Shown one piece after another: positions 40,330 to 61,656 of a DNA stretch of 64,000 bases. Origin of the DNA: an uncultured Acidobacteriota bacterium. GTDB taxonomy: Bacteria > Acidobacteriota > Blastocatellia > RBC074. The position numbers and the translations under genes are program-made. The stretch spans positions 1,760,001-1,824,000 of the forward strand of contig CAWCKY010000006.1 in the NCBI GenBank assembly GCA_963796275.1, given 5' to 3'. The notes under the pieces were generated by a model that was not told the DNA's origin, did no database searches, and saw only the letters and a program-made list of their open reading frames with translations. Each line of letters opens with the position of its first letter. Within the stretch, counting starts at the first letter, position 1.

Positions 40330-40680
40330 GAAGTGTCAGGCGTGAAGCGCGAAGCGTGATGTGGCTGGTGATCAGCCGCGTGTGGTTGGTGATGATCGTG
40401 GTAGCCTCGATTCGGCGTCAGGCTGAGCGCGCGCCGGAATGATCACGTATTCATCTAGCTCGTCCATGCCGAAGTTTATGATGCGGAAGAGCGGGTCTTT
40501 CATTCCTTTGATGTGATGATAGACGCCTGCCTCGGTAAGCCCGACAGCTTCGGCGATGTCGTTATGGATGTGGCGTCGTAGCCCTTTCGCAAATTAGCAC
40601 AGCCGCCACGCGGTAAATCTCCCCCAGACGATTCGTTTCGTCCAAAGCGGAGAGCTTGAATGAGGATTTCGTTCTCAATG
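40330..40680 (-). pseudogene. TetR/AcrR regulator, frameshifted
   Basis: Across frames: 'EIYRVAAVLICE-GYDATS-NDIAEAVGLTEAGVYHHIKG...LFRIINFGMD'. Confidence 0.7.
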
Positions 40681-40700
40681 TCGTTTCTCCTGATTTATGT

Positions 40701-41132
40701 TCATTTGGCGCCCCTCTCTTTCGTTTGCTTTGGGCCGATGCTGTGAATGTAGTTGATGATTTGCCATATCTGCTTCTCCTTGAGCCTCTCTCGGTAAGCC
40801 AGCATGTCAGCCGACACGCCATCGCGGATGACGACGAAGATTTCGCCGTCGGTAGAGCCGTAATCCCAGACGTCGTCGGTCAGGTCGGACGGCTCGCCGC
40901 CTGAGAGCGCCAGTCCGCCGTCGCCCTTGCCGTTCGGGCCGTGACACGCGGCGCAATAGCGCTGGTAGAGCTCCTTTCCGGCTTCAATGGATTCAGCGTT
41001 TTGCGGCTCGGGATTCTTAAGCTTCTGCGCTTCGAGATTGCGGCGCTGCTCTTGCGCCTGAAGCGTCGGCCAAAGTCCGGTCATGACGAGTGCGAGCACC
41101 AGCCAAATGATCCTGTTATTCCTGAGGGACAT
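40701..41132 (-). CDS. periplasmic class I cytochrome c
   Basis: Signal peptide, CAACH heme motif and distal Met 'ADMLAY'. Confidence 0.9.
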
Positions 41133-41619
41133 CGAAATTCTCCATCAGATATTCGGGGTGTCGCTCTCGCAGGTGCAGAAACAGTTCATGCGCCAGATTG
41201 ACGATGCGTTTGACCCCATACGCGTATTGATTGTTTTTGACTTTGAGCGAAACTGAAACAACGCCTCCCTGGTTCGAGCAGGAAACCTCGGCTCGTTTGC
41301 GATCGATCCGCCGGTGTTCTGGCAACTCCTTGTCGTGCCGCCGCTCGATGAAGCTCTTCAATTCGGCGTAGAGGGCGGATTTCGCCGGAATGTTGGGCAG
41401 AAGCCGGTTGAATCGCAACTCGTGTTTCTCTGTGTTCACTCTCAATTCCATCAGGTGATTGACCGCCCAAACGAATTGGAAGCGCTTGTTTTTGGTTTCA
41501 CTGAAGCCGCGAAAGACGCCACGGTCAGCGTAAGCCTGTAAGCTTTCTCTGACCACGGTCAGTGGTTTATTTATTTGTTCTCGGGCGACTGCCATAGAAT
41601 TGGTAGATGGATTCGCCAA
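41116..41619 (-). CDS. conserved hypothetical protein
   Basis: Well-formed ORF overlapping the cytochrome c start; no motif recognised. Confidence 0.65.
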
Positions 41620-41851: not shown

Positions 41852-43801
41852 TCAATGGTTGTACGACATGCAGCCCGGCTCGATCGTGCCCAAGAAGCCC
41901 GGCGGGTACTGCTGATTGGACCAGAATTCCTTCTTCGCCTGGCAGTTGATGAGCGCAGGCCGGCTCTCTTTGACAGCGATCTGGTAGCAGCGTTCGAGCG
42001 CGACGCGGAAATCTTCCGGTCTGGTAACGTACTCGCCGTGCGCGCCGAGGCCTTCGGCGACCTTGTCGTAACGCACGTTCTCCTGGAAAAGGTGGAGACT
42101 CAACGTCACAGGGTTGCGGCTGTTACCCGTCCACGTGCCCCAGGCGTTGTTGTTGTATACGATGACAATGATCGGCATTCGGTATTTCGAAGCGGTTTCG
42201 AGTTCCATGATCGTGTAGCCCACGCCGGCGTCGCCCGTGACGCAGATCACCGGGGAGCCTTTGTACGCAGCCTGCACGCCGACGCCGTTCTGCACCGCCA
42301 CCGCAGCGCCGATGGCGTAACCGACGTCGGGCCCGATCGCGCCGTATTGATACGCCCCATTCAGAATCTGGCCCGGGCGATAGCCGCGCAACCAGCGGCG
42401 CACGTATCTGGCGATGCCATATCCGCCGGAGACGAAGGTAGTCTGCTCTTTGGGCAGTTTGCCATGGTACATAAAATCGGTCAGCTCTTTGGCGATCACC
42501 GCCGGGTGGACAGCATCGGTATAGCTCAGGCCCTTCGCGTAGAATGATTCATTTTCGTCTTCGAACTTCTTCCGCGCCGCTGCAATCTCGGCCACCCACG
42601 CTTCGCGTTTCATCGCGGGCATGGCGTCGGCGAGCGACTCGATCGCGGCCTTTTCGCAACTGACCATGCCGACGTCTATCGGCACGTTGCGACCGATGTC
42701 TTCGGGGCATGGGTCGATGCGGATGTATTTCGCATCCGGCCCGAAGGCGAATTCGCCTACCTTCGGCATGCAATACTGGCCGACCAGCACGACGACGTCG
42801 GCGCTGGGGAGCGCGCCAGGCGCGGCGTTGGCCGAAAGCGGACCCGCGTCCGAGAATTGCCCCTTCATCGCGCCTGATTCGACGACGGGAATCTGCGCCT
42901 TCTCGGCCAGTCTCTTCAACGCGTCCCAGGCGCGGCTGTAAAAAACGCCGTTGCTCGAGACGATGATCGGGCGCTGGGCGTTTTTGAGCAGCTCGACCGC
43001 CGCCGCGACGTCCTTCGGCCCCGGATGCGGCTTGGCGGTCGTGCGGTATTTGGCCTTGTCGTAGTAGCCCTCGAGGTCGCCAGGTTTCTCGAAGCGCGCG
43101 CGCGTAACTTCCGCCGGGAAATCGAGGTGCGTGGGGCGCGGGACGCCCGATCGCAACTGCCGAAACGCGTAAGCGCCGTACTCGTGAATGCGCTTCGGAG
43201 TGATCAATCGTTTGCCGTATTTCTTCAGCCCTTCGGTGGTCGGCTGCTGATAGGCCAACTGGATGCCTGCCTCTGTATCTTCATTGGCGACCGTCATGTT
43301 GCTGGCGAGCACGAGCACCGGCGAGCGCGCCGCGTTGGCTGCGGCGATGGCGTTGATCATGTCTGTGAAGCCCGGCCCTTCCGTGCCTGACGCGGCCGCG
43401 ATTTCCCCAGTCACCCGACAGAAGCCGTCGGCGGCGTGGCACATCGCGCCTTCGTGGCGACCGGAGTAGGTCGGAATGCCTTCGAGCGCGATGGCGTTGA
43501 CGATGGAATAATTGCCGGGGCAGGAGAAGAGCGCGGCGAGTCCCTCTTCCTTGCAGAGTCGCGCGAAGACCTGCGCCCCAGTCATCGGGAAGGCGGCCTT
43601 TACCGGAGCGGTTTTGGCGGCCTGGGCGAATTCGTCTGGCACCTTGATCGGTTTGTTTTCAGCAGTGTCGGCGGCGTTCGCCCTGTTTCCGTCAAAGGCG
43701 ATAACCGTGGTCATTCCGGCCCCGGCCACCGCTTTGCTTATGAATTTTCTCCTGGAAACGTCAGTTTTTTTCACCCTATTTTTGTCGTCTATTTTTGCCA
43801 T
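41852..43801 (-). CDS. thiamine-diphosphate-dependent enzyme (ALS/HACL/benzaldehyde-lyase superfamily) with twin-arginine signal
   Basis: 'SRRKFI' + hydrophobic stretch + ANA, then 'MTGAQ', '[12 protein letters not shown]' and the ThDP motif 'GDAGVGY...VYNN'. Confidence 0.9.
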
Positions 43802-43956
43802 AGCCTCTCCTCCGATTTGCCCATTTTGCCTCTTTCGATGGATGGATGAGCGGGTTTACAAGCCGCCCTCGCGCAATCTTGTACCGCGCCCTGGCGTTGG
43901 AATACAAATTTAGTGTTTGAGCAAAAAATTAAAAAGATGGTAATGATGGTAAAGAA

Positions 43957-43980
43957 TACTTGCCTACCGGCCGGTAAGTA
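43957..43980. promoter_or_regulatory. palindromic operator, copy 1 (TetR-like)
   Basis: TACTTGCCTACCGGCCGGTAAGTA between divergent genes; its reverse complement matches 44963-44983. Confidence 0.65.
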
Positions 43981-44032: not shown

Positions 44033-44893
44033 ATGCGAAAACTTTTCCCGTTCTCCCTTTTGCTGTTATTGATTCCGATGGTTCCGCCATCAACCGGCGG
44101 AATGACGCAGGAAACATCGAACGCCACAAGCTTCCATCATGTCCACCTGAATTCGACCGATCCGTCGAAGGCGATTGATTTCTACACGCGGACATTCGAC
44201 GTAACGAAGAAGATGCGGCTCGCCGGCTTTGACGGGATTCAGAGCGAGAAGATCTATCTACTCTTCAACAAGGTGGACATTCCTCCAGCGACCTCACCCG
44301 ACAGCGCCATCTGGCATTTCGGGTGGGGAAGCACAACGATGGAAGCCGATTACCAGAAGCATCTCTCGCATGGCGTGACGTTTCATACGCCGATAACCAG
44401 GCTTGGGTCGGGACTGTTGTTCGCTTATATGAAAGCGCCGGATGGAGCGTTGGCAGAGATCAACACATCGAACACCCGCGCCTTCATTCACATCCATTTG
44501 TACAGTGACGCGCCGCTCTGCGCCGCCGAATGGTATATCAAACATCTCGGCGCGAGCAGTCGCTTGCAGCGCAGCGGCCCGTGTGAAGTCCCATTCGCCG
44601 CGCCCAGCGAGCCGCTCGGAGTTATTCGGTCGCCGGCGACTACGGTTCGTTTCGGCGAGATCAGTTTGATAATCTACCCGCGCCAGCGCCCCAGCCCTCT
44701 GGTCAGCCCGCGCGGCCACGTCGTTGATCATATCGCGTTCGGCGTCACTGATTTGGTAGACGCGCTCGATCGGTTGCGGAAATCGAGAGTGAAAGTGTTG
44801 GAAGAAGCGCGCTTGTTTGGCGACGGTAAAACTCGCGCGGCGATGATCGAAGGACCGGATGCGATTGCAATCGAACTCGTTGAAATGAAGTGA
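44033..44893 (+). CDS. secreted VOC/glyoxalase-fold protein (two modules)
   Basis: Signal peptide; 'FHHVHLNS', 'WHFGW', 'HIHL', 'DHIAF' and 'GPDAIAIELVE'. Confidence 0.85.
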   Translation: MRKLFPFSLLLLLIPMVPPSTGGMTQETSNATSFHHVHLNSTDPSKAIDFYTRTFDVTKKMRLAGFDGIQSEKIYLLFNKVDIPPATSPDSAIWHFGWGSTTMEADYQKHLSHGVTFHTPITRLGSGLLFAYMKAPDGALAEINTSNTRAFIHIHLYSDAPLCAAEWYIKHLGASSRLQRSGPCEVPFAAPSEPLGVIRSPATTVRFGEISLIIYPRQRPSPLVSPRGHVVDHIAFGVTDLVDALDRLRKSRVKVLEEARLFGDGKTRAAMIEGPDAIAIELVEMK

Positions 44894-44935: not shown

Positions 44936-44983
44936 TTGACAAGGTTTGGGGGGGGGCTATAGACTTACCAACCGGTAGGTAGT
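44936..44983 (+). promoter_or_regulatory. sigma70 promoter with G9 spacer tract and overlapping operator copy 2
   Basis: TTGACA (44936), G9 (44948-44956), TATAGACT; operator ACTTACCAACCGGTAGGTAGT. Confidence 0.65.
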
Positions 44984-45164: not shown

Positions 45165-46319
45165 ATGCTACGCAACCTTATTTTGCTCGTCATTACATTT
45201 GTTTTTGCGTTAAAAGGTTCCGTTGACACCGCTCGCGTCGGATTGTTAGCCATTGCCGTCGCGCTGTCGTTTGCGGGAACGGCGAACGCCCAGGAAAAAC
45301 GCTTCCAGTTTCCCGGCACGACCTGCACAGCCGGCGCTCCATACTTGCACTGTCCCGACCGTGAGTGCTCAGGGGCCACGGTAATCAATCAGGGAAACGT
45401 GGTCGAGATGAAGACGCGCCGCACTTACTTCCTTGATTATCCGTGCGATATGAAGAAGGGCGAGAAGGTCACTTTCATAATGAGTCTGCACGGCGGCGGC
45501 TCATACGGAAACTGGCAGCGACATTATTTCCCGCTGCTGGATTACGTGGACAAATATCGCCTGGTTGTCGCCACTCCGAACTCACCGACGCGAGCGTGGG
45601 CGCAAGCTGACGACGAGTACTTGCAGAACATTGTCAACTATGTCATCGAACAAGTTGGCAAGGAAAATATCAATGCCTTCTGGCTGGTTGGACATTCGCA
45701 GGGCGGCATGACTTCCAACCGGCTCCTGCGAACGGACTTCTTCAAGGACAGAGTGGATGGGTGGCTCAGCCTCTCCGGCGGTCGATTGGGCGGAAATCCG
45801 GGACGCAGCTCGACTTTCGCTCCCACCGGCGCCGCAGCGCCTGGCGGCGCAAGTTCAGGAGCGCCCGGCGGTAACAACCCGAGGGCGTCAGCTATGGCGG
45901 CATTGCGCGAGCTTCCCACCGCGGACTTCTCTCACATTTTCGAGACAGGCCAGCGCGAAGTGGACGAGAAGGGCGTGCCAGAGACATCCGATTGGGCCAA
46001 GAAATATTCTTGCGGCCCGCGACTCGCGCCGAGGGAGGTCGAAGACGTCAAGGCAGGCTACGTCTATGACAGCAACCGCTTGAATTTGTTGCGTCCGGGT
46101 TGGGGACTCCTGCCAGCGCCCGGCAGGGCGCAGGTCCTCGCATATCCCGACTGCAAGGACGGCCGTGTGGTCGCCGACGTCGTTCGCCTCGATAAGGGAC
46201 ACACCGAAGGGCTCGAGCCGAAAGTTACCGAAGAGCTGATCAAGTTGATGCTCTCAGGCCGGGGCGGTAAGCTTCAACAAATCACTACCACGTCCGCGTC
46301 GACTCAGGAAAAACGCTGA
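45165..46319 (+). CDS. secreted alpha/beta hydrolase (PHB-depolymerase/esterase-like)
   Basis: 'SLHGGGS', nucleophile 'GHSQGG', and 'KGHTEG'. Confidence 0.85.
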
Positions 46320-46417
46320 TCGAAATCATAGGGAAAGTTTATCGCCGGCTTCGCAACGGGTCTGATCCCTAAGCCAACGACAAATGAAGTTTGTCGGATA
46401 TTTCAGAGAAAAGAAAC

Positions 46418-47689
46418 ATGCCAACAATCAAGCGTTCAATTCTGCTTCCCTTAATTCTGACCGTTTGCGTGGCTGCGCAGGTCATTGTCCAGTCCCAGGC
46501 CGAAATCATTCCGGACTTGATCTACGGCCACAAAGGCGGTCTTGCAATGACATTCGATGCGCTCAAGCCGCAGGCGAACGCCAACGGCGCCGCAAAATCC
46601 AAAAACGATTACAGCAAGGCCGATACATGGTTATGTCGCCCGGGCAGAGATGACGCTTGCTCAGCTGACTTAACGACAACCATCGTCGCCGCCAACGGTA
46701 AGTTGACAGAGGAGAAATGGAAGGCCAATCCGAACGCGCCGATTGATTGTTTTTACGTCTATCCGACGATCTCCAACGATCCGACCCCGAACAGCGATAT
46801 GAGCGCCGGGCCGGAAGAGCGCCGCGTCATTCAGCATCAGTTCGCGCGCTTCGGATCGCAATGCCGTCCGTACGCGCCGCTCTATCGCCAGGTGACGTTG
46901 ACGACGCTGCGCGCCAATCTGTCGGGGAAGCCGATGGCGGTTGATCGCGTGCTCGCTTACTCCGACGTGCTGGACGCCTGGAAATATTATCTCGAACACG
47001 ACAATCGAGGGCGCGGCGTCGTTCTCATAGGCCATTCGCAAGGCTCCAGCGTTTTGATCCAGCTCATCAAGAATGAAATTGACGGCAAGCCCGTCCAGGA
47101 TCGCATCGTTTCCGCGTTGATATTGGGATTGAATGTCGCCGTGCCGATTGGCAAAGATGTCGGCGGCGCTTTTCAAAAGATGCCGTTGTGTCGCGCGGCG
47201 AATCAGACCGGATGCGTGATCTCCTACGTCACGTTTCGCGAAAACTCGCCGCCGCCCACCAACTCATTCTTCGGCCGCCCGCCAGCCGATGGGATGGTCG
47301 CGGCATGCGCGAATCCGGCGGCGTTGGGTGGCGGCAGCGGCGAATTGCGTGCCTATCTGGCGGCGGGCAGGGGCGCGGTTACCTCATCTGCTGCGCCAAA
47401 ACCCTGGGTGACCCCCGAACGACCGATCAGGACACCGTTTGTGAGCGTGCCGGGATTGCTCTCGGCCAAATGTGTGTCCGACGATCACGGTTCATACCTT
47501 GCGCTGAAAGTTCACGGCGATCCCGCCGATCCGCGCACTGACGACATCGCCGGCGATGTCGTGACGAACGGGCAGGCGCAAGCGAATTGGGGATTGCACC
47601 TGATTGATGTGCAGGCGACGATTGGCAACCTGGTGGATATTGTCGGCCTGCAGGGAAAGACTTATCAGGCAAAAAACAAGAAGAAATAG
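46418..47689 (+). CDS. DUF3089 alpha/beta hydrolase, secreted (chimeric N-terminus)
   Basis: 'WLCRPG', 'IDCFYVYPT', 'APLYRQ', 'GHSQG', 'WGLHLID'. Confidence 0.85.
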   Translation: MPTIKRSILLPLILTVCVAAQVIVQSQAEIIPDLIYGHKGGLAMTFDALKPQANANGAAKSKNDYSKADTWLCRPGRDDACSADLTTTIVAANGKLTEEKWKANPNAPIDCFYVYPTISNDPTPNSDMSAGPEERRVIQHQFARFGSQCRPYAPLYRQVTLTTLRANLSGKPMAVDRVLAYSDVLDAWKYYLEHDNRGRGVVLIGHSQGSSVLIQLIKNEIDGKPVQDRIVSALILGLNVAVPIGKDVGGAFQKMPLCRAANQTGCVISYVTFRENSPPPTNSFFGRPPADGMVAACANPAALGGGSGELRAYLAAGRGAVTSSAAPKPWVTPERPIRTPFVSVPGLLSAKCVSDDHGSYLALKVHGDPADPRTDDIAGDVVTNGQAQANWGLHLIDVQATIGNLVDIVGLQGKTYQAKNKKK

Positions 47690-47843: not shown

Positions 47844-47860
47844 TTCCTTTTGAGGTTTAG

Positions 47861-50008
47861 ATGAAGGTGGCTCTCTCAAACCGCCAAAACACGATTATAG
47901 CCTTCGCCGTTCTTGGCGTTCTTGCGTATTTCAGCGGTGTCGTGGGATTTTCCCAAGCGGCCACGCGGCTGGAGCTCAGGACACTGTCGTCGCGACCCGA
48001 CCTGGTCAGTGGTGGCGACGCGCTGGTCGAAATCAAAACTCCTGCAGGCGCGCAACTGAACCAGCTCAGACTGACGCTCAACGGCAAGGATGTCACTAAC
48101 CGGTTGAGGCTCGATGCGGCCTCGGGCGGCTTTCGCGGATTGATCGGCGGAATGGTTGTAGGAGAAAACACGCTGATTGCGAAGATCAAATCGCCAAAAC
48201 CTGCTCAGGCGAGCCTGAAAGTCACGAACTATCCGATCACGGGGCCGATTCTTTCGGGGCCGCATCTGACTCCTTACGAATGCCGCACAGTCGAATCGGG
48301 CCTGGGCGAGGCGCTCGACGCCGCCTGTTCAGCCAAACAGAAGATCGAATATTTCTATCGCGCGTCGAACGACACTTTCAAACCGCTCGCAAATCCGACC
48401 GGGGCGCGACCGTCCGATCTGATCAACACGACAACCAACGACGGAAAGACCGTACCCTACATCGTGCGCGTCGATTCGGGCACGATCAATCGCAGCATCT
48501 ACCGCATCGCGATCCTCGACGAGCCGAACACCGAGACGTCGCCCATAAACGGGGATCAGGTCGAATGGAGGCCCGGGCCGGGTTGGAATCGTAAATTGGC
48601 CGTGAGCTTCGGCGGCGGCGCGGGCACGCAATACAATCAGGGCGTCAACCAGGGGACCGCCGCGCTGAATCACCTCTACCTGTCGCGCGGCTTCGCTTTC
48701 ATGGTCTCGACCGAACTGGTCAATCAGCAGCACGGCAATGCGGTGTTGCAGGGCGAGGCGCTGATGATGCTCAAAGAGTATTTCATTGAGCGCTACGGCC
48801 TGCCGGAATGGACTGTTGGCAATGGCGGGTCGGGCGGAGCGATCCAGCAGTTGGTGATCACGCAAATCTATCCGGGCTTGCTCGACGGCTTGCAGCCGAC
48901 GCTTTCGTTTCCGGACTCATCGCTTCACACATCGGATTCAGGGCTGTTACAAAATTTCTGGCGGAAGGCCGATCCGTCTGTCTGGACCGACGCTAAGAAA
49001 ACGGCGGTCGAAGGCTTTACCAAAGGGACCACCGCCGCCTGGGAACGGTCATTCGTACCGGTGCTGACCGCAACCAACGCGCGCGGATGCGCGATGAATG
49101 ACGCCAGCAAGATTTATGATCCTGTAAAAAATCCCAAGGGCGCCCGCTGTACGATGCAGGAAATGCGCGCAAATATCTACGGACGCGATTTGATGACCGG
49201 CTTCGCGCGCAAGCCTCAGGACAATGTCGGATTGCAATACGGATTGGCGGCGTTGAATGACGGCGCGATCAGCGTGGACGAATTCCTGGAGCTGAACGAG
49301 AAAATCGGCGGCAATGATATTGACGGGAACTTCATTCCGCAGCGCGCCGTGGGAGACCCGATCGCGCTGCGGGCGATTTACGCGAGTGGTCTTATGAATT
49401 CGGGCGGCGGCGGGTTGGCCAACGTTCCGATCCTTCACGCGCGGCCTTACACCGACGCGATAGGCGACATCCATGACCGTCATCGCGACTTGACGATCCG
49501 AGCCCGCCTGGAACGGACCAACGGGCGCTCGGATAATCAGGTGATCTGGACGGGGCCGCCGCGCGGGCTGAATCAAACCGATCAGAATCGAGGCGTAAAC
49601 CTGGCAGCGCTCTCACTCGACACTATGAACGAATGGCTCGACGCCATCGCGGCCGATCCGGCGCCGCTCTCGACAGACAAGATCGTGCGCCACAAACCGG
49701 CGGAGGCCGTTGACGCCTGCTGGGATACTGAAGGCAATAAGATCGTCGAGAAGGCCCGTTTCGATGGCAAGGGAAAGTGCAACACGCTTTATCCGGCGCA
49801 CAGCGAGCCGCGGCTGGTGGCCGGAGCGCCGCTCACGAATGACATCGTCAAATGCCAGTTGAAGCCGATTAACTTCGCCGATTACAGGGTAACTTTCACC
49901 ACCGCGCAGAAGGCGCGTATGAAGGCCGCCTTCCCGGCTGGCGTCTGCGATTTCGGCAAGCCAGGCGTGGGCCAAGGGCCGCTTAAAGGGACGTATCAGC
50001 GGTATTGA
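47861..50008 (+). CDS. DUF6351 family (tannase/feruloyl-esterase-like) secreted protein
   Basis: 'LSSRPDLVSGGDALVE', 'NYPITGPILSGP', 'GGSGGAIQQ', 'DNVGLQYGL', 'KCQLKP', 'FPAGVCD'. Confidence 0.85.
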   Translation: MKVALSNRQNTIIAFAVLGVLAYFSGVVGFSQAATRLELRTLSSRPDLVSGGDALVEIKTPAGAQLNQLRLTLNGKDVTNRLRLDAASGGFRGLIGGMVVGENTLIAKIKSPKPAQASLKVTNYPITGPILSGPHLTPYECRTVESGLGEALDAACSAKQKIEYFYRASNDTFKPLANPTGARPSDLINTTTNDGKTVPYIVRVDSGTINRSIYRIAILDEPNTETSPINGDQVEWRPGPGWNRKLAVSFGGGAGTQYNQGVNQGTAALNHLYLSRGFAFMVSTELVNQQHGNAVLQGEALMMLKEYFIERYGLPEWTVGNGGSGGAIQQLVITQIYPGLLDGLQPTLSFPDSSLHTSDSGLLQNFWRKADPSVWTDAKKTAVEGFTKGTTAAWERSFVPVLTATNARGCAMNDASKIYDPVKNPKGARCTMQEMRANIYGRDLMTGFARKPQDNVGLQYGLAALNDGAISVDEFLELNEKIGGNDIDGNFIPQRAVGDPIALRAIYASGLMNSGGGGLANVPILHARPYTDAIGDIHDRHRDLTIRARLERTNGRSDNQVIWTGPPRGLNQTDQNRGVNLAALSLDTMNEWLDAIAADPAPLSTDKIVRHKPAEAVDACWDTEGNKIVEKARFDGKGKCNTLYPAHSEPRLVAGAPLTNDIVKCQLKPINFADYRVTFTTAQKARMKAAFPAGVCDFGKPGVGQGPLKGTYQRY

Positions 50009-50229: not shown

Positions 50230-50251
50230 TTATTTGCATCAGGAGACGTTT

Positions 50252-53970: not shown

Positions 53971-55414
53971 ATGAAACGTTTATTCATCGTTCTGCTCATA
54001 ATGCTGACTGCGGCTGCGGCAGTGAGCAGGAAGCGGAACGACGCCGCGAGTGTGACTTTCAGCAAAGACGTCGCGCCGATCATCTTCAACAAGTGCGCCA
54101 ACTGCCATCGCTCTGGTGAGGTCGCGCCGATGCCGCTCACCTCATACGCCGAAGCTGCGCCCGTGGAGCAAAGCCATCCGCGAAGAGGTCATCGAACGCT
54201 CGATGCCGCCCTGGTTCGCCGATCCGCACACCTCGACTCTCAAATTCGGCAACGACCGCAGGCTCTCGCAAAAAGAGATCGATACCATCGTCGCCTGGGT
54301 CGACGCCGGGGCGCCGAAAGGCGATGACAAAGACCTCCCGCCGTTTCCGAAATACACTCCCGGCTGGACGTTCGGCGAGCCTGATATGGTGATCGAGATG
54401 CCGGTTGATTTCGAGGTTCCGGCGGAAGGCGAACTGCCGATGCAGAATTTTTACGCGCCGGTTCCCTTTACGGAAGAACGATGGGTCGAAAAGGTCGAAC
54501 TGCGTCCGGGCAATCCGGCGGTCGTGCATCATTCAATCGCCAACGTGGTCAAACTGCCGGAAGGAACAAAGATCGTGGACGGCAAGGCTGTCCGCGCGGA
54601 TGGCGCGGCCGCCGGTAGGCTCAACAGCCAATCGGCGCGCGAGACCGGAGGATTGAGCGAAGGCGGATCGCGTGAAGTGTTCTTGAGCCAGGATTCGTTC
54701 ACACGCGCCGGCGCGTTCAAGCTCGTCGGACAGGCTCCGGGCAAGGGATTCGAGCAGCATTACCCCGGCACCGCCAAGCGCATCCTGCCGGGGATGTACG
54801 TACAGTTCAATATGCATTACCAGCCGAGCGGACGTTCTGAAAAAGACCGCTCGCGCCTCGGTCTCTGGTTCGCCAAAAAACCAGTGACGCACGAAGTCCT
54901 CACGAAGGGCGTCAGCGACACGATCTACATTGGTGGCAAGGAACTGAGTGAAACCCGCACGATCAACGGCAAGGAAGTCAAAGTGCGAGGCCGCATTCCC
55001 AACATCCCGCCGAACGTTGACAACTGGGAGATCGGCGGCGAAGTGACGATCAAGGATGCGATCACGCTCTACGCCTTCGCGCCGCACATGCACCTGCGCG
55101 GCAAAGACATCAAATACACGCTCGTCTGGCCCGACGGTCGCCGGCAGGTGCTGCTCGACGTGCCGAAGTTCGACTTCAACTGGCAACTCCATTACGAGCT
55201 TGCCGAACCGCTGAAGATTCCCGCAGGCAGTAAACTGATCTCCCTCGCCCACTACGATAACTCGATCAAGAACCGCTACAACCCGGCGCCCGACAAAGAA
55301 GTATTCTGGAGCGAGCAGAGCTGGGATGAGATGTTCATCCCGTGGTTCGAGTACACGGTGGACAGTAAAGTTTTGACGAAACCCGGCGTCACTCAAAGCG
55401 CGAGCAAACAATAA
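53971..55414 (+). pseudogene. second heme c-copper monooxygenase, +1 frameshift near 54155 (possibly sequencing error)
   Basis: CANCH in the first frame. Removing one C in GAAG(C)TGCGCCCG restores 'EVRPW'. Then 'VHHS', 'NMHY', 'PHMHLRG', 'DEMF'. Confidence 0.8.
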
Positions 55415-55440: not shown

Positions 55441-56418
55441 ATGATGAGTGTACTGCAAGCGATTGCGCTAACTTCCGCAATGCTTACAGGGGGAGTAGAA
55501 CCGGCGGCGGCCGCCAGATGTTTTATTCCTGTCAGCGTATTAGAAGAACTCGAAAAGTCCGACGCCGTCTTCGCGGGTAAAGTCATCGCCGAAGAATACC
55601 GCCCTCTGAAGACGTCTACGGACAAGGGCGAAGTTTTAACCGTCAAGTTTGCCGTTGGGAATTGGTGGAAAGGCGGAAAGAGCGAAGAAGTGATTCTGTA
55701 TACCTCGAAAATCAGCTATTCAACAGGAATTCAGTTCATGGTCGAGGACTTTCATTTCACCGTGGGTGAGCGCTATCTGGTCTATGCGTCCGGCGCGCCA
55801 GACAATCTAAAAACCAATGGTTGCAGGAGAACGAAGAAGCTGGAAACAGCGGATGAGGACCTGCAAAAGCTTGGCGAAGGCAAGGCGCCTGAACCGCTGC
55901 TCCAACAACTTGCACAGCAACCTTCCCGGCCTACTGATCCGAACGATCCGATGCCGCCGCCGAATATGGATTACTTCGTCGGCGCATGGACCTTTGACTG
56001 GAATGTGCCTGAATCGCCGCTCGGCCCAGCAGGGAAGTTGAAAGGCAAAGAGACGTACAAGAAGACGTCCGACGGCGATTACGAAAGCGAGATCGAAGGC
56101 GAGGGCCCGCAGGGGGCTTTCAAAGGGCGCGCGACCACCAATTACAACGAGAAGGAGAGGTCAGTCACGCGTTCCGAGACGGGATTGTTCGGCGCGTCGA
56201 TCGTCAAGACCGGGCCAATTGGCGGCGACCTCGGCGGGTATTACACGATTTACTGGGAGACGCAGCCCATCAAAAAAGACGGCAAGACGATCAAACTGAA
56301 AGGCAAGACGCTGATGCTCTCGCCGGCCAATTACCGGTTGCAGGTTCAGATCTCGGTTGACGGCGGGCCGTATGCCAATTTCGGCAGCCCGTGGTTCCGC
56401 AAGTTTGAAGACAAATGA
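55441..56418 (+). CDS. secreted two-part hypothetical protein (TIMP/NTR-like N-part + DUF1579-like C-part)
   Basis: 'C...SDAVFAGKV...GERYLVYA...CRRTK', then '[12 protein letters not shown]...QISVDGG'. Confidence 0.6.
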
Positions 56419-56543
56419 AACCATAGACAATTCGGGTCGGTACCGCGGGCGGTAGCGAGAATAACTCCCTGAGGCGCATTTTCGCCGAAGTCATACTCGT
56501 TACCGCTCGCGGCGCTGCCTCGGTGTCCGATAGAGCAAATCCA

Positions 56544-58457
56544 ATGAAAGCGCCAAGCAAGATCCTCGTCGCAAGTTTGTTCTCCGTAATCCTGTTTTCC
56601 TCGCTCCTCTTCCACGCCGTCTCTTTGCGCTTTGAGAGCAGCGCCACTTCCATCGGAGAAGCCGCGCCGCAGCGACAAGCGCCCGCCACTTCTCCTGAGG
56701 GTGCTGAACTGTACAAGCAAAAATGCTCGGTCTGCCACGACAACCCGCAGGATCGCATTCCGCCGCTGTTCCTCATCCGCCGGCGCTCGGCGGAAGATGT
56801 GGTCATGACCCTGACCTCAGGCTCGATGAAGCAGCAGGCGGCGGGTTTGACCGCTGAGCAGATTCACGCCTTGGCGATTCACTTGACCGGTAAAGCGCCA
56901 GGCCCCCCGATCGAAGAGAACATGGGAGCAAACCGATGCGCGGGAGCTGCGGCGCCGATAAATCTGAAAGGGCCGCAATGGAACGGCTGGGGCATCGATC
57001 TCGACAACTCCCGCTTCCAGCCGAAGCCGGGTATCAGGGCCGAGGACGTTCCGAGGTTGAAGGTCAAATGGGCATGGGCGCATCCTGGGCCGATGGCGAC
57101 AGGTCAGCCGACCGTCATAGGCGACCGCCTCTACCTGACCATCGAAGCGGGGATTGTCGTCAGCTTGAACGCGCAAACCGGCTGCACCTACTGGGCGATG
57201 CAGCCGGGCGCGGCGGTGCGCGCCGCCGTCAGCGTGGGGCCTCTCCCAACCGGACCGAGGTCTTCCGGATCGAAGGCCAAATACGCAGTCTATTTCGGCG
57301 ATGAGAAATCGAACGTTCAGGCGCTGGACGCCGACACAGGCAAGCTGCTCTGGAAGACAAAAGTCGAAGACCATTTTCTCTCTCGCATTACCGGCGCGCC
57401 CACGCTCTATCGTAATCGCCTCTACGTGCCGGTCTCCTCGTTCGAAGAGACGGCCGGACGCGATCCTAAATATGAATGCTGCACCTTTCGCGGCAGTCTC
57501 CTCGCGCTCGACGCTTACACTGGGAAAATAATCTGGAAGAGTTTCACAGTTCAGCAGGAACCGAAGCCTTTCAAGAAGAATTCCGTCGGAACGCAGATGT
57601 ATGGCCCCGCGGGCGGCGCGATCTGGTCTGCGCCAACCATCGATCCGAAGCGCGGGTTGATCTACGTCGGCACTGGCAATTCCTACACCGACGTCGAGAC
57701 CAGGCATACGGACGCGATCGTGGCGTTCGAGATGAAAACGGGCAAGATTAAATGGGTGAACCAGGTTAGCGCCAAAGACAACTTTCTGGTCGGTTGTCGC
57801 CAACCGGGCGTCGGCAACTGCCCTGATCATGCAGGGCCTGATCACGATTTCGGCAGTTCGCCGGTTTTGCGCAAGTTGCCCAACGGCAGACAAATTCTTT
57901 TAGGCGGCCAGAAATCCGGTGTGATGTGGGCGTTCGATCCGGACAATAATGGCAAGGTCTTGTGGCAGGTGAAAGTTGGCGGCGGCGGCGCCCTGGGCGG
58001 CATCGAATGGGGCTTCGCGGCTGACGCGGAGAACGTCTACATTCCGGTCGCCGACCCTTTCGGAGGGGAGACTCGCAAACCCGGACTGACCGCTCTGAAG
58101 ATCGCAACAGGGGAGCGGCTTTGGAACATCCCCGCGCCTCCGGCGAAATGCGATTGGGGCGCGACTCGCTGCAACAACTCGCAATCGGCCGCGGCGACGG
58201 TCATTCCTGGCGTGGTCTTTTCAGGCACGGCAGATGGGCGCCTGCGCGCTTATTCGACCAAAGACGGCGCGATCATCTGGGTCGTCGACACTGCGCAACA
58301 GATCGCCACAGTCAACGCCGGGCGGGCGAAGGGCGGCACGCTTGACGGCGGCGGGCCGACCATAGCCAACGGCGTCCTTTACACAAATTCCGGCTACGGC
58401 CGCCTCATCGGGCACCCTGGCAATCTGTTGCTGGCCTTCACAGTGGATGGCAAATAG
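56544..58457 (+). CDS. PQQ-dependent quinohemoprotein, polyvinyl-alcohol-dehydrogenase-like
   Basis: Signal peptide, N-terminal CSVCH, 'WNGWG', vicinal 'ECCTFRGS', 'GGAIWSAP', '[10 protein letters not shown]', 'GGIEWG'. Confidence 0.88.
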
Positions 58458-58814
58458 TATTCATCATCGGGGTCTGAACGAACAGCGGTGCCGCGAAGCG
58501 ATTCAGGCTTATTACGCCTCGATCACGTCGCGCCACGAATCGCACATTTGAGTTACTGGATATTTATCCAACACGTCGCTCGCCGGAGACGGTTTAGGAT
58601 AGTTCGAGCAACTCGGCGCACAGGCGTAATCGCCCAGACGAGAGCCAGCCGTTCTTTGCCGTCTGAGCATTACTGGTAGAACAATCACCACGAACCAATA
58701 CTGACGCCGCATTTCTGGCGGTTCCATTAACAGCCTACGAGCGAAGGGACGAACAAGTATCCAAAGATGAGAGCTCGTTCGACCTTGCTTGCGATAAATT
58801 ATGGAGGCCCATCA

Positions 58815-61656
58815 ATGCCTATTCGAAAACTAACAATTCTCCTAAAGACCGTCATGACCTTCACTTGCGCCGGCTTGGTCCTGGCGCAGACATCGGCGGG
58901 CAGTATTCGCGGCTCCGTCACCGACCAGACGGGCTCTGTTCTGCCTAACGCCACGGTTACCGTCAAGAATCTCGATACCAACAGTGATCGTAAACTGACA
59001 ACCAATGACGACGGGCTATACAACGCCGACAACCTCCTGCCCGGCGTTTACGAGGTGGGAGTCGAAGTCCGGGGGTTTCAACGCTCCATCAAACGGGTCA
59101 CCGTGCTCACCGGCAACACGCACACTGCCGATTTCTCGTTAACCATCGGCGCCAGCAACGAGACGGTGACCATTACGTCGGAGGCGGCGCAGGTCAATAC
59201 GAACGACTACAAGATTGATGGCGTCATCACCAGAGAGCGTATCGATGCGCTGCCGCTCAACGGGCGGAATTTCCTTGAATTGGGGCAGATGGAGCCGGGC
59301 GTTTCCGTCACGATCACTGGGAACCCAGGTGGCTCCGCCAATAGTTTTACACAGGTCAGTGTGGCTGGCGCCGGAGCTGGTTTGACTCGCATCACGGTCG
59401 ATGGAGGCAATGTCGGCGACCGCGTCACCGGCGGGTCGGCCACAAACTTCTCGCAGGAGTCGGTCCAGGAGTTCCAGATCTCGACCTTCAACTTCGACCT
59501 CTCCACGGGAGTGACTTCGACCGGTGCGGTCAACATCATTTCCCGAACCGGCACAAACGCTTATCACGGCAGCGGGTTCTTTTTCTTCCGCGACCACAAT
59601 ATGGCGGCCTACCCGAATCTCAGGCGGAGCGCCGCCAATCCGGCCCCCTTCTTCGCCCGACGCCAGGGTGGGTTCTCACTGGGCGGCCCCGTCAAAAAAG
59701 ACAAGCTCTTCTGGTTCACCAATTTTGAATATGGCAATCAACTAGGCGTAGCAGAGGTCTCCCACCTGACGACTGTAGGCGACGGAGGGGCCTTCGCGGC
59801 CAATTTCAACCACAACGGCGAATTGCCTCTTCGGAATAAGCTCTTCAACGCGCGACTCGACTACAAGGTGAACGACAGGCACAACACCTTCCTGCGCTAC
59901 AGCGAAGACCATAGCAAACTACGGCAGTTCACAGCCGTCAACGAATCGTCCGGCTCCACCAGCGAAAACAACGCTTACAACGCGGTGCTGGGCCTCACCA
60001 GTGTCCTTTCGGCGAGCTTGGTAAACGATGTCCGTTTCAACTACAACTTTCTCGCGAGCGCGCTCGGCGCCCCCGGCCCTGAGGATTGCGCCGGCTCAAT
60101 CGGCTGCCTTGGCGCGCTGGGGCCGCAATTCAATGTCGGAGGTGTCGGTTTCAGGATCGGGGTCGCCAGCGGATTGCCGACCGATCGCGCCAACCGAACC
60201 TACCAGGTCACCGATACGGTCAGCTGGTCGAAGGGCGCGCATCGCATCCGCTTCGGCGGCGAATTTGAGAAGTATGTGCGGTTCGGCTCGTTAGCCACGA
60301 ACGACACAGGAACAATAAATCTTTTCGGACCTGAACAAGTGCGTGTCCAGAATCCGACTCTCTACGCCGCCCTCCCAGCAAGTTTGAAGAGTCCGGCGGC
60401 CGGGCCGATCTCCTTGGCGGACATCCTGAGTCTACCCGTCCAGACCTTCTCGATCGGGGTCGGAGATCCGGGTTCCCCCGCGCCCTTCAATCTCGAGAGT
60501 GCGCGCCGCACCAACCGCTATCGCCTTTTCTTCCAGGATGGCTGGCAGGTCCGCCCGAATTTCACATTCAATTTCGGCATGGCTTGGGCCTACGAATCCA
60601 ATCTCCGGAATTACGACTTACCCAAGCCTCAATGGCTGGCACCGCTTATAGGAGATGGGGAAAATCTGGAGGCGCCTGGCCGAGAGTACAAGAACTTTTC
60701 TCCCGCCATTGGCTTCGCATGGTCGATGGGCAAGGAGAAAAAGACTGTGATTCGCGGCGGATCGGGAATTTATTTCGATTCAGATCTGGGGTCCAATCGC
60801 ATCGCGGAGCGGCGCATCCTCGGCCCGTCGGGCAATGGCCGCGTGGTCATTGACGGCACGGGAATCGCGAATCCGCTCTTAGGTCAGGCGGATCAACCTT
60901 CGACACTGAGCCCCACGGCGACACCTACGACCTTAACCGGGCAACAAGTAGTGAACCTGATCCCACAGATCAAAGCCGCGGAGACTGCGCGGTTCGGTCT
61001 GCTTGGAGATCTTTCAGTTCGAAATATCGAGTTGCTTAAGTCCACGGGGACTGGTCAGGCCATCTCCCCTACGCGGCCTACTCAACGGATGGCAGTTCTC
61101 GACGATCAATCAATTCCAAAGTTCTCCGCCCTCCAATCCGAACATCGCGATCGACGTGGACGGGGAGGGGACGTCCATTTACACCTTGCCTGGGATCGGT
61201 TGGAATGGTTTCGGGCGAAACGCTAACCCCGACGACATACGGAAAGCGGTCGAAACGTACAACGCCGACGTGCTGGCGCGGAGCAACCCCCTGCCCGCTA
61301 ACGCGACCGCCGAGCACCGGGCGGCCTGTACTCTGGTTGTAAATGGCCGGACGCTTTGTGCCCCCAGGACACCACGTAACCAGGTCTACCCGCTGATCAA
61401 CTTACCTGCGGCCTTCTCCAACGGGGACACATTCATCACAAACGATCTCCGCGTCACTCGGATCATCAAGCTCGGGGAAAAGGTCAGGCTGGCGCTGATC
61501 GGCGAGGGCTTCAACATTTTCAATATCGCAAATCTCGCCGGCTATAACGAGGACCTGCAATCGGCGAACTTCGGAACTCCCACCACTCGGACGAATCAGG
61601 TTTTTGGTTCGGGCGGCCCGCGCGCTTTCCAGATCGCCGCAAGACTGAACTTCTGA
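58815..61656 (+). pseudogene. Oar-type TonB-dependent receptor with internal deletion/frameshift near 61060
   Basis: CarboxypepD_reg N-domain, 'LPLNGRNFLEL', 'GTNAYHGSGFFFFR'. The C-terminal 'GGPRAFQIAARLNF' is in another frame. Confidence 0.85.

Follow-up and report, generated by a model that had tools for sequence, protein, structure and literature searches.

The window analyzed here comprises 64,000 nucleotides from a soil acidobacterium (Blastocatellia, Acidobacteriota), and the locus of interest lies at 40.3–61.7 kb. A preliminary description had listed a cytochrome c, a Tat-exported ThDP enzyme, a VOC protein, four alpha/beta hydrolases, a DUF6351 protein, two heme c-copper monooxygenases, a PQQ-heme dehydrogenase and a TonB receptor, most of them exported. 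All listed genes were found, but the second monooxygenase, the receptor, the position of a TetR remnant and the export of one small protein (unk167) had to be corrected. A crude hydropathy heuristic (not SignalP) detected an N-terminal hydrophobic segment in 13 of 14 locus proteins, the exception being unk167, so that exported proteins are indeed in the majority. As described before, Pfam revealed no glycoside hydrolase family among the 15 locus ORFs.

The edge of the locus is formed by the expected remnant of a TetR-family repressor, which six-frame reading and tblastn placed at 40360–40672 on the minus strand. Only the N-terminal HTH half is left, and it is distributed over three frames. Two intact TetR proteins matched the remnant in tblastn searches, one from the related locus L005 (4405–5037; 47% identity over 97 aa, E 2e-20) and one from L065 (9146–9784; 63% over 54 aa, E 1e-17). 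By sequence similarity, the remnant is thus a member of a TetR family that is found intact beside these two loci. The repressor is a remnant, and therefore expression of this copy may be constitutive or controlled in trans.

Three further genes are encoded on the minus strand. The ThDP enzyme (41852–43801) contains all three TPP domains according to Pfam, and its nearest sequences in the PDB are oxalyl-CoA decarboxylase (E 1.4e-45), 2-hydroxyacyl-CoA lyase and benzaldehyde lyase (E 9e-36). It shares with this branch the three domains, the catalytic Glu and the GDG...NN-type motif, which are represented by the invariant HEG Glu117 and GDAG...NNN. In contrast to the branch, it carries a twin-arginine export signal (SRRKFI; [ST]RRxFI in 8/8 orthologues), and CoA thioesters are therefore unlikely substrates. 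A second difference is the strict linkage of its gene to a partner of 150–167 aa without a known family and to a cytochrome c. In the window, the partner is unk167 (41116–41619), the 3′ end of which overlaps the start of the cytochrome c gene (40701–41132) by 17 nt. The cytochrome is a mono-heme protein (Pfam Cytochrome_CBB3 and Cytochrom_C) with a CxxCH motif at residue 60 and a signal-like N-terminus, and its gene follows unk167 in all seven loci possessing the triad.

No Pfam or NCBIfam match was obtained for unk167, the heuristic predicted no signal peptide, and all of its 1655 homologous clusters are named hypothetical; the only lead came from the Atlas (DUF2299). Modeling of a complex with the ThDP enzyme yielded a score of 0.70, whereas the best of three controls scored 0.00. 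Among solved complexes, 116 of 157 attain this mark, and among mismatched pairs 2 of 215, counts that apply approximately here because own alignments were used. The model runs shared at least 75% of contacts, the pLDDT of the partner was at least 82, and the modeled interface of unk167 (Y30, R33–V35, P100, H102, R103, N141, H144, E145) is invariant in its alignment. However, the score may echo a resemblance to solved catalytic-regulatory complexes of acetohydroxyacid synthase.

All other genes are located on the plus strand. The VOC gene (44033–44893) encodes a secreted two-domain metalloprotein (Pfam Glyoxalase and Glyoxalase_4), in which H35, H36, H38, H95 and H233 are invariant across 13 family members. 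The predicted monooxygenases, CuMO1 (52545–53873) and CuMO2 (53971–55414), are paralogues with 42% identity. CuMO1 combines a cytochrome c domain (CxxCH at residue 48) with a two-copper core of the PHM/DBH type, and its residues H190, H191, H267, H333, H335 and M415 align with all six copper ligands of PHM. Both proteins have a CxxCH motif. Their Cu2_monoox_C scores, 22.3 and 22.9, are slightly below the curated cut-off of 23 bits, and Pfam did not report the N-terminal PHM domain family for either of them. A profile of the family retrieved PHM from the PDB (E 5.9e-6) in an alignment that matched each of the six ligand positions. The ligands are retained in 99 of 110 family members and the CxxCH motif in all 110. 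The predicted structure of CuMO1 (pLDDT 90.1, pTM 0.85) had human DBH (4zel) and rat PHM as its best Foldseek matches (E 1e-13 to 1e-10, probability 1.00), at a sequence identity of only 15–17% in the structure-match comparison. CuMO1 and its orthologues form a clade of 14 sequences with a support of 0.998. The claim of two such enzymes was thus borne out, with the qualification that the frame of CuMO2 is split by one extra base near 54155 relative to all three orthologues compared. The 14 CuMO2 orthologues in the alignment retain CxxCH and all six ligands.

On the basis of sequence and modeled structure, the CuMOs are PHM/DBH homologues and predicted copper monooxygenases with a fused cytochrome c. 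Like PHM, DBH and tyramine beta-monooxygenase, the eukaryotic non-coupled two-copper enzymes, they have two beta-sandwich domains, and the CuH ligands His-His...His and the CuM ligands His-x-His...Met align. Unlike these enzymes, they are bacterial and are predicted to be exported to the periplasm, they carry an N-terminal mono-heme cytochrome c domain in place of the ascorbate, DOMON or cytochrome b561 arrangement, and their genes occur in tandem pairs or arrays (at least two copies in 41 of 78 loci). Such a cytochrome c-fused PHM/DBH-type monooxygenase appears to be a form unstudied in bacteria.

The ORF downstream of CuMO2 (55441–56418, 325 aa) is a fusion, as seen in the alignment, of a window-specific N-terminal part and a conserved DUF1579-like domain (about residues 165–325). 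The DUF1579 match is weak (E 0.0065), and for the N-terminal part there is a weak TIMP-like lead from the Atlas only (0.79). It is followed by a quinohaemoprotein dehydrogenase (56523–58457; PQQ, 106 bits, and Cytochrome_CBB3) of PVADH-type architecture, in which the CxxCH motif for heme c (residue 68) precedes the propeller. Its best PDB match is a type II quinohaemoprotein alcohol dehydrogenase (E 5e-15), and the propeller fits standard alcohol dehydrogenase models over its first half only (NCBIfam TIGR03075, 123.5 bits versus a cut-off of 480).

Between the VOC gene and CuMO1, the four alpha/beta hydrolases and the DUF6351 protein were recovered as described. ABH1 (45165–46319) is an exported protein with weak Abhydrolase_6 and Abhydrolase_1 matches and GxSxG motifs; it is followed by a DUF3089 hydrolase-like protein (46391–47689; 175 bits, GHSQG motif), the tannase-like DUF6351 protein (47861–50008; 807 bits), and two esterases of the dienelactone hydrolase/AXE1 type assigned by Pfam. 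These are DLH1 (50234–51364; best PDB matches PA2218 and YcjY) and its paralogue DLH2 (51470–52459; 36% identity by blastp). A sequence search of the PDB with DUF6351 gave one match and no usable relative. A small secreted-protein gene at 50041–50229 is a 5′-truncated remnant and marks a rearrangement scar; tblastn with the intact gene of L002 (1753–2139) matched residues 67–128 of 128 with 79% identity, so that only the 3′ half is present.

The last gene of the locus (58767–61656) encodes a TonB-receptor-like outer-membrane barrel. CarboxypepD_reg and barrel matches support the earlier assignment, but the gene is a pseudogene. The Pfam barrel pieces span profile positions 139–534 and 689–833 of 838, Plug and TonB_dep_Rec domains were not reported at E ≤ 0.001, and the receptor of L010 matched in tblastn with residues 1–764 and 949–1145 in different frames. 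This corresponds to an internal loss of about 150–180 residues together with a frame change at 61043–61069. The ORF at 61003–61656 encodes the C-terminal end of this barrel and is no regulator. An IucA/IucC siderophore-synthetase gene (62010–63854) is convergent with the receptor gene.

The shared operator was confirmed at two positions. Site 1 (43963–43979, minus-strand sequence ACTTACCGGCCGGTAGG) overlaps the −10 element of a promoter-like site (44005–43977) that faces the ThDP operon. Site 2 (44963–44979, ACTTACCAACCGGTAGG) belongs to a promoter-like region before ABH1 (44936–44979, plus strand) with TTGACA-18-TAGACT and a G9 run within the spacer. In both cases the operator begins within the −10 hexamer, and the two promoter-like matches concerned are the best relevant ones. 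With at most three mismatches, the 17-bp palindrome has three matches in the window, one of them its own reverse strand, against a chance expectation of 0.06. In 1.07 Mb of loci, 11 matches with at most two mismatches were found versus 2.4 ± 1.4 (maximum 6) in 40 shuffles. Matches lie 97–137 bp upstream of the ThDP gene in L003, L007 and L012, and also upstream of a CuMO gene in L027 and of the receptor gene in L010, where the 17-mer is identical to site 2. One more match precedes the ThDP gene in L004, and variants adjoin the TetR genes that are intact in L005 and L065. The palindrome is therefore regarded as a real, though predicted, operator that is conserved across genomes before the same operons.

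Gene order was compared in 78 related loci, which came from the 80 best among 553 confirmed matches; 16 of these loci are orthologous. The preliminary description had named lack of synteny in other genomes as an argument against the locus, and for the redox genes synteny was clearly found: CuMO1 and CuMO2 adjoin in 16/16 orthologous loci, and the DUF1579-like gene comes next in all 14 that extend far enough. The ThDP-unk167-cytochrome c triad occurs in 7/16, always complete and in constant order, the PQQ-heme gene in 7/16, and the VOC gene (at least 67% identity) in 4/16. The PQQ gene is missing from L009, L010, L011 and L015, all of which extend far enough, and in the hydrolase-type loci L001, L002, L005 and L010 the triad does not occur within the stretch that was sequenced; because each is missing from some loci, no single pathway needs all parts. 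The commonest neighbours in the 78 loci are DUF1579-like (27), Amidohydro_2 (25), VOC (22) and PQQ (15) genes. The hydrolases, by contrast, are not conserved along with the core. DLH-type genes were found in 2/16 orthologous loci (DLH1 in L002, 83%; DLH2 in L001 and L002, 76%), ABH1 with DUF3089 in 2/16 (L005 and L010; DUF3089 also in L031 and L065), and DUF6351 in 1/16 (L010, 78%). A receptor gene (40% identical) was found in 1/16, and receptors are present in 9/78 loci overall. An import step is unsupported for this copy because the receptor is a pseudogene here and occurs in just one orthologous locus.

In summary, the gene comparisons indicate that the locus is a conserved redox core with a variable shell of esterases and receptor. 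The core consists of the Tat-ThDP enzyme, unk167 and a soluble cytochrome c, in this order, plus CuMO1, CuMO2 and the secreted DUF1579-like protein; the PVADH-type dehydrogenase and the secreted VOC protein often accompany it. The copy in the window is, judged from its genes, a rearranged and partly decayed version with four lesions. These affect the repressor (a remnant), the small gene (5′-truncated), CuMO2 (frameshifted) and the receptor (a pseudogene). Three window junctions (VOC|ABH1, DUF6351|DLH1, PQQ|receptor) have no counterpart in other loci, and the arrangement may for this reason have originated by chimeric assembly.

It might be argued that the redox core alone is the functional unit and that rearrangement or assembly has placed unrelated esterases and an unrelated receptor next to it, the receptor perhaps serving the siderophore-synthetase gene. 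The varying hydrolase content, the truncated gene at the DUF6351|DLH1 junction, the 309-bp gap without an operator in front of the receptor, and the convergent, pseudogenised state of the receptor gene are in agreement with this view, as is an IS200-type transposase inside the core of L003 and L007. However, operator site 2 and the best promoter-like site directly precede ABH1, and the genes from ABH1 to PQQ are co-directional with gaps of 26–225 bp. In L010, the identical 17-mer precedes one co-directional string of receptor, DUF3089, DUF6351, ABH1, CuMO1, CuMO2 and DUF1579-like genes, and in L005 an intact TetR gene and an operator variant precede carboxylesterase, ABH1, DUF3089 and CuMO1. 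Esterases lie immediately upstream of CuMO1 in 4/16 orthologous loci (L001, L002, L005, L010), and the G+C content of the receptor (0.58–0.59) is like that of the locus and unlike that of the siderophore gene (0.48). We thus consider this separation unlikely, and the sequence data speak for a coherent oxidative locus, co-regulated and with mostly exported products, and not for a neighbourhood formed by chance.

The nature of the substrate is a separate question. A PHM-like action of the CuMOs on peptides (C-terminal glycine or another backbone C-alpha), for catabolism or modification, with the remaining module recycling electrons and products, appears quite improbable: PHM is the closest solved sequence relative and some paralogous loci contain genes of peptidase type (M48, a beta-lactamase-fold protein, amidohydrolases), but the fold matches to DBH, a benzylic hydroxylase, equal those to PHM, and Pfam revealed no lyase partner, precursor peptide or peptidase in the window's locus. 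Moreover, VOC proteins, Amidohydro_2 proteins and esterases are the most frequent neighbours, and proteins of these kinds occur more typically in the catabolism of aromatics or esters. The preliminary description had drawn an analogy to polyvinyl alcohol (PVA) degradation, which would imply a 1,3-diol or beta-hydroxyketone polymer, a PQQ-heme dehydrogenase followed by a beta-diketone hydrolase, and cytochrome c as acceptor. The pathways described for Sphingopyxis sp. 113P3 and for Pseudomonas sp. VM15C comprise PVA dehydrogenase, oxidised-PVA hydrolase and cytochrome c. The pva operon and the locus both group serine hydrolases and a cytochrome c with a PQQ dehydrogenase that has a heme c site (PMC11644497). 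The analogy holds for the dehydrogenase architecture (heme c site and PQQ propeller) and for the cytochrome c gene only. Pfam also revealed serine hydrolases in the locus. The JGI automatic name "polyvinyl alcohol dehydrogenase (cytochrome)" on many of the 120 listed dehydrogenase homologues also fits, but an automatic name is no test. The analogy fails for the hydrolase: no oxidised-PVA-hydrolase relative is among the PDB matches of ABH1 (4), DLH1 (60 listed of 70) and DUF6351 (1), and no Esterase_PHB-type Pfam match exists in the locus. In related loci, the neighbours of the dehydrogenase gene are the CuMO/DUF1579 genes and no hydrolase gene, four orthologous loci are without the dehydrogenase gene, and the pva operon as described lacks the copper monooxygenases, ThDP enzyme and VOC protein of the locus, which has a DUF1579-like protein in addition. 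A PVA-type pathway is therefore rated as very improbable.

We consider it somewhat better than an even chance that the locus is a cluster for the extracytoplasmic oxidative breakdown of a probably ester-linked organic substrate under control of a TetR-type palindromic operator. In this best explanation, we infer the class of substrate, the sequence of reactions and the path of the electrons. The esterases would free monomers or oligomers, either periplasmically or on the cell surface, and the CuMOs would hydroxylate an activated C-H bond that is benzylic or alpha to a heteroatom. The two electrons for this reaction would arrive via the fused heme c and not from ascorbate, supplied by a c-type cytochrome pool that the PQQ-heme dehydrogenase, and possibly also the ThDP enzyme via the adjacent cytochrome c, may feed. 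The dehydrogenase would oxidise the alcohols formed, and the ThDP enzyme would split an alpha-hydroxyketone or 2-oxo intermediate, with unk167 bound to its middle domain as a co-exported subunit or a cytoplasmic chaperone. The order proposed previously, i.e., import, C-H hydroxylation, alcohol oxidation, and ester/diketone hydrolysis or C-C cleavage, is reasonable and chemically sensible as a conjecture.

The proposed route resembles that of cellobiose dehydrogenase and lytic polysaccharide monooxygenase, in which a heme domain passes electrons to an extracellular copper monooxygenase. By analogy, an extracytoplasmic copper monooxygenase would receive single electrons from a substrate-oxidising dehydrogenase, with a cytochrome as the intermediate, but the components are unrelated, heme b/FAD and histidine-brace copper there versus heme c/PQQ or ThDP and a PHM fold here. 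With polysaccharide utilisation loci, the locus has in common exported degradative enzymes, a local regulator with an operator, and an outer-membrane receptor gene (in L010 and the window). In contrast to them, it is devoid of glycoside hydrolase and SusD-type genes in Pfam, its enzymes are oxidative and esterolytic, and the receptor is infrequent in the related loci. The esterase set around the redox core differs from genome to genome, and an outer-membrane receptor is added now and then.

The redox core of the locus, which is built on cytochrome c-fused copper monooxygenases of the PHM/DBH type, is its most interesting element, rather than a periplasmic oxidative 'utilisation locus' as a whole. 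The preliminary description had proposed the latter; what it had observed was largely right, and its interpretation was partly supported. ORF listing and Pfam and NCBIfam domain scans bore out the gene content of the region of 40.3-61.7 kb. On the minus strand, the domain scan identified a cytochrome c gene (40701-41132), the ORF listing a gene for a 167-aa protein that matched no family in the domain scans (unk167; 41116-41619), and Pfam a ThDP enzyme (41852-43801) in which each of the three TPP domains is present. The plus strand encodes a two-domain VOC protein, the hydrolases ABH1, DUF3089 and DUF6351 (807 bits), two DLH/AXE1-like esterases (DLH1 and DLH2), two proteins with CxxCH and Cu2_monoox_C (CuMO1, 52545-53873, and CuMO2, 53971-55414), an ORF of 325 aa, a PQQ propeller with an N-terminal heme, and a CarboxypepD_reg domain with an outer-membrane barrel. 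As had been stated, domain scans matched no glycoside hydrolase among the 15 locus ORFs. Export signals had been attributed to most of the genes, and 13 of 14 proteins indeed have an N-terminal hydrophobic segment according to a simple hydropathy rule, a crude stand-in for signal-peptide prediction, but unk167 has none. Rfam reported no RNA family in 39800-62100, and a literature search for DUF6351 yielded nothing usable. An AraC/GyrI-like regulator (38743-39852) was rejected as a locus member; it has no counterpart in any of 78 related loci.

PHM/DBH-type two-copper monooxygenases are ascorbate-dependent enzymes of hormone and neurotransmitter synthesis in animals. The two CuMO proteins scored 22.3 and 22.9 bits for Cu2_monoox_C, below the curated Pfam cut-off of 23, and Pfam did not report the N-terminal PHM family Cu2_monooxygen. 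A single-sequence PDB search with CuMO1 gave nothing relevant. The profile of an alignment of 110 family members drawn from related loci matched rat PHM in the PDB (E 5.9e-6). C48, C51 and H52 are invariant in this alignment, and H190, H191, H267, H333, H335 and M415 are each conserved at 90% or more. The latter six residues of CuMO1 align to the copper-ligand positions in the VHH, QVHY, HTH and EM motifs of PHM, so that CuMO1 has both the CuH (His-His...His) and the CuM (His-x-His...Met) site of the PHM/DBH type II enzymes. All six copper ligands are kept in 99 of the 110 relatives, one has H267R, and most are absent from ten divergent paralogues. The structure of CuMO1 was modelled with the 110-sequence alignment (pLDDT 90.1, pTM 0.85); this model replaced a first one from a shallow alignment (20 sequences, 71-90% identity), which was discarded at a pLDDT of 43.9. 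Foldseek retrieved human DBH (4zel) and rat PHM as top PDB matches (E 1e-13 to 1e-10, probability 1.00), and the PHM matches had TM (target) values of 0.6-0.66 and shared the two-domain beta-sandwich core. Because of the ligand alignment, the PHM profile match, the model and the fold matches, the earlier designation of two heme c-Cu monooxygenases, as putative enzymes, is well supported by sequence and predicted fold.

The family is large. At least 7990 relatives of CuMO1 (clusters at 90% identity) were found at E<=1e-5 among 8000 candidates scored. Among those scored, the nearest belong to Blastocatellia and carry the names 'cytochrome c' or 'thiol-disulfide isomerase' or are annotated as hypothetical; no domain match backs the second of these names. 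In the family tree, CuMO1 belongs to a clade of 14 sequences with a support of 0.998. A literature search, with coverage that left out most subscription journals, found no paper describing bacterial cytochrome c-fused proteins of this kind. Tandem CuMO arrays are common in Acidobacteriota. The ten ligand-poor paralogues (in the related loci L039, L041, L047, L051, L055, L056, L063, L064, L067 and L070; e.g. L039:11312-12604) retain the CxxCH heme motif and are 30-35% identical to CuMO1, and several of them lie directly downstream of ligand-bearing copies in such arrays.

The gene neighbourhood was analyzed with one genome per species and the CuMO1 alignment as anchor. The best 80 of 553 confirmed matches represent 78 loci on Acidobacteriota-type MAG contigs, several of which were labelled otherwise by their depositors. 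Seventeen proteins of the window served as tblastn queries against these loci (E<=1e-8, coverage of at least 0.4). Sixteen of the loci, with an anchor identity of 62-84% (45% in the truncated L016), were treated as the orthologous set. The redox genes turned out to be syntenic across related loci. CuMO2 directly follows CuMO1 in all 16 orthologous loci, and the DUF1579-like gene is next in all 14 that are long enough (13 detected by tblastn and L001 through ORF clustering). The complete ordered triad of ThDP enzyme, unk167 and cytochrome c genes is present in seven of the 16. Six of these seven have the triad upstream of CuMO1 in the same orientation; it adjoins CuMO1 in five, and in L012 the PQQ gene is interposed. 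The PQQ-heme gene itself occurs in 7 of the 16 loci and is missing from L009, L010, L011 and L015, all of which are long enough to show one. A VOC gene with at least 67% identity was found in 4 of the 16. The hydrolases vary: L001 has DLH2, L002 has DLH1, DLH2 and another hydrolase, L005 has a carboxylesterase, ABH1 and DUF3089, and L010 has DUF3089, DUF6351 and ABH1 behind a receptor that is 40% identical to that of the window. The locus thus consists of a conserved redox core and a variable esterase shell. The window copy combines blocks that are found separately elsewhere, and its ThDP block is inverted.

De novo ORF clustering of the 78 loci, i.e. of the best 80 of 553 matches, showed at least two CuMO genes in 41 loci and revealed DUF1579-like (27) and Amidohydro_2 (25) proteins as the commonest CuMO neighbours, followed by VOC proteins (22), PQQ propellers (15), receptors (9) and multi-heme cytochromes (8). 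One cluster, 'Family 6' (10 loci), was discarded as antisense shadow ORFs over CuMO genes. The Amidohydro_2 protein of about 506 aa (25 of 78 loci, e.g. L030:11358-12878) is the second most frequent CuMO neighbour in paralogous loci; its gene is usually accompanied by VOC and two-domain DUF1579-like genes and is lacking in the window. In L003 (13548-14003) and L007 (13518-13976), an IS200-type (Y1_Tnp) transposase gene lies between the DUF1579-like and the PQQ-heme genes; the L007 ORF was assigned through its membership of the cluster that holds the L003 gene. In the window, alignment showed the 325-aa ORF to be a composite of an N-terminal part specific to the window and the DUF1579-like domain conserved elsewhere. 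The profile of the DUF1579-like family had no significant PDB match, and the Atlas leads for the ORF were weak (0.79; TIMP in 19% of one cluster). The conserved residues of the domain include no His, Cys or Met, and therefore the idea of a copper chaperone was abandoned.

In a PDB sequence search, the ThDP enzyme was nearest to oxalyl-CoA decarboxylase, 2-hydroxyacyl-CoA lyase and benzaldehyde lyase. It has the Pfam N, M and C domains of the ThDP superfamily, the invariant catalytic Glu E117 and, as the GDG-(X)n-NN cofactor motif, the likewise invariant residues G523-D524-A525-G526...N550-N552. Its N-terminus contains the Tat motif SRRKFI followed by a hydrophobic stretch, and [ST]RRxFI is present in 8 of 8 orthologues. 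Because the enzyme is predicted to be periplasmic, a CoA ester is an unlikely substrate, and an acyloin or a 2-oxo compound would be more plausible. A literature search on Tat-exported ThDP lyases retrieved nothing usable. The protein unk167, whose gene overlaps the start of the cytochrome c gene, shows strong conservation; its 1655 clusters all bear the name hypothetical. A complex model of the ThDP enzyme and unk167 reached a score of 0.70, and the best of three controls 0.00. The 0.70 mark was attained by 116 of 157 solved complexes and by 2 of 215 mismatched pairs, counts that apply only approximately, since own alignments were used. The model runs had a contact agreement of at least 75% and a partner pLDDT of at least 82, and the predicted contacts involve the middle domain of the ThDP enzyme (residues 276-405) and invariant residues of unk167. 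The modelling supports a predicted interaction between unk167 and the ThDP enzyme, although part of the high score may stem from resemblance to solved acetohydroxyacid synthase holoenzymes.

The shared operator described previously was confirmed at two sites, ACTTACCGGCCGGTAGG on the minus strand (43963-43979) and ACTTACCAACCGGTAGG (44963-44979). Each begins within the -10 hexamer of a promoter-like match that ranks among the best; one of these matches (44005-43977) points to the ThDP operon and the other (44936-44965) to ABH1. Terminator-like and promoter-like sites were no commoner than in shuffles, and the analysis kept just the two promoter-like sites coinciding with the operator. At these two sites a palindromic operator overlaps a putative promoter, as in TetR-repressed operons. 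A run of nine G residues (G9, 44948-44956) lies in the 18-nt -35/-10 spacer of the ABH1 promoter-like site; it could change the spacer length by slippage or be an assembly-prone homopolymer. The 17-bp palindrome recurs in related loci above the shuffled expectation: at up to 2 mismatches it was found 11 times in 1.07 Mb, compared with 2.4 +/- 1.4 (maximum 6) in 40 block shuffles. Among the matches, those in L003, L007 and L012 precede the ThDP gene by 97-137 bp; in L010 one lies 316 bp ahead of the receptor gene with which the string begins, and in L027 one lies 288 bp ahead of a CuMO gene. A looser pattern adds L004 (upstream of the ThDP gene), L026 and L031. Close variants are present in the promoter regions adjoining both intact TetR genes, in L005 and L065, and from this position the TetR family of these two loci is the putative cognate of the operator. 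An intact cognate repressor gene was not found at the window locus. The TetR remnant reported at its edge is located at 40360-40672(-), is frameshifted and covers the N-terminal part only, with 47-63% identity to the N-terminal half of the intact TetRs. With no more than a remnant of the repressor left, the genes of the locus may be expressed constitutively in the window or be regulated in trans.

The window copy is rearranged, with three junctions that no other locus shares, and has four lesions, some of which may be assembly artefacts. A TonB receptor had been listed, and a CarboxypepD_reg/barrel gene is indeed present, but it is split and has an internal loss. In tblastn, residues 1-764 and 949-1145 of the L010 receptor matched the window in two different frames, 26 nt apart, and the two Pfam pieces skip profile positions 535-688; the frame change and the skipped positions identify the gene as a pseudogene. 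The ORF 61003-61656 is the C-terminus of its barrel in six-frame reading. By the same reading, CuMO2 starts at about 53971 and its frame shifts near 54150; it has one extra base at about 54155 compared with all three orthologous loci aligned. Between the DUF6351 and DLH1 blocks, 50041-50229 corresponds to the 3' half of a small secreted-protein gene that is intact in L002 and, judged from the sequence, marks a rearrangement scar.

Several further observations were made in the window. At 17795-17956(-), a stretch of 54 residues aligns with the L010 receptor over the last 70 residues of the latter (43% identity, E 1e-9); it resembles a further receptor fragment, with no full-length gene nearby. 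A 397-aa ORF (23649-24842, minus strand) has only parts of GH2 N-terminal and TIM-barrel domains, and a 403-aa ORF (32465-33676, minus strand) combines PadR, MacB_PCD and FtsX pieces. Both look truncated or fused, which suggests many gene remnants in the region. When small ORFs next to other gene fragments of the window were scanned with Pfam, no additional split pieces came to light. An IucA/IucC-type siderophore synthetase gene with an FhuF-like domain (62010-63854, minus strand) is convergent with the receptor pseudogene and has a G+C content of 0.48, much below that of the locus (0.53-0.62). A 565-aa ORF (12659-14356, minus strand) weakly matches the second helical-bundle domain of vanadium chloroperoxidase (E 2.5e-6).

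The preliminary description had compared the locus with the degradation of PVA. According to the review PMC11644497, this pathway comprises a PQQ-dependent PVA dehydrogenase with a heme c site and an oxidised-PVA serine hydrolase, and cytochrome c is the acceptor in Sphingopyxis sp. 113P3. The window PQQ dehydrogenase has a predicted architecture of this kind, with a heme c site, and many of its listed homologues bear an automatic JGI name as PVA dehydrogenase. Its propeller scored 106 bits for Pfam PQQ (cut-off 26.7), at profile positions 1-290 of 595 only, and 123.5 for TIGR03075 (cut-off 480). A cytochrome c gene is present as well (40701-41132, minus strand), but in related loci its linkage is with the ThDP gene rather than the PQQ gene. 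No relative of the oxidised-PVA hydrolase was among the listed PDB matches of ABH1, DLH1 and DUF6351, the three hydrolases covered by the search. Nor was such a hydrolase found beside the dehydrogenase, whose neighbours in related loci are instead the monooxygenase and DUF1579-like genes. A PVA-type function of the locus is considered unlikely. A literature search for PVA dehydrogenase in Acidobacteria retrieved no papers. In contrast to a polysaccharide utilisation locus (PUL), an intact TonB-dependent receptor is missing from the window, and Pfam matched neither a SusD nor a Plug domain in the locus.

In the mechanism that we propose for the locus, electrons would reach the copper monooxygenases via the fused heme c and would be supplied by the PQQ-heme dehydrogenase and/or the ThDP enzyme through cytochrome c. 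Ester hydrolysis would come first, then hydroxylation of a C-H bond, oxidation of the alcohol and cleavage of a C-C bond. Judged from the types of neighbouring genes alone (tannase-like, feruloyl-esterase-like, carboxylesterase, VOC and Amidohydro_2), the putative substrate would be an ester-linked, possibly phenolic, plant or soil compound. A wider reading, which we consider speculative and rather doubtful, is that the cytochrome c-fused proteins are a large uncharacterised class of bacterial extracytoplasmic C-H hydroxylases that are independent of ascorbate and receive their electrons from a dedicated periplasmic c-heme chain. Two enzymes would feed this chain, namely a quinohaemoprotein dehydrogenase and a ThDP enzyme that is exported by the Tat route and has a new small subunit. 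Combined with exchangeable esterase cassettes that share a single TetR operator, the hydroxylases would form an oxidative counterpart of PULs for recalcitrant ester-linked plant and soil organic matter.

Among the defined parts that the cluster supplies for experiments are a putative repressor/operator pair, a Tat-exported ThDP enzyme together with the new partner predicted for it, and candidate esterases. A bacterial branch of copper monooxygenases with a built-in cytochrome c would show another route of feeding electrons to the two-copper site. This branch is abundant in soil Acidobacteriota, where it lies within a conserved, operator-controlled periplasmic redox module, and it would also point to an unrecognised oxidative route of soil carbon turnover.
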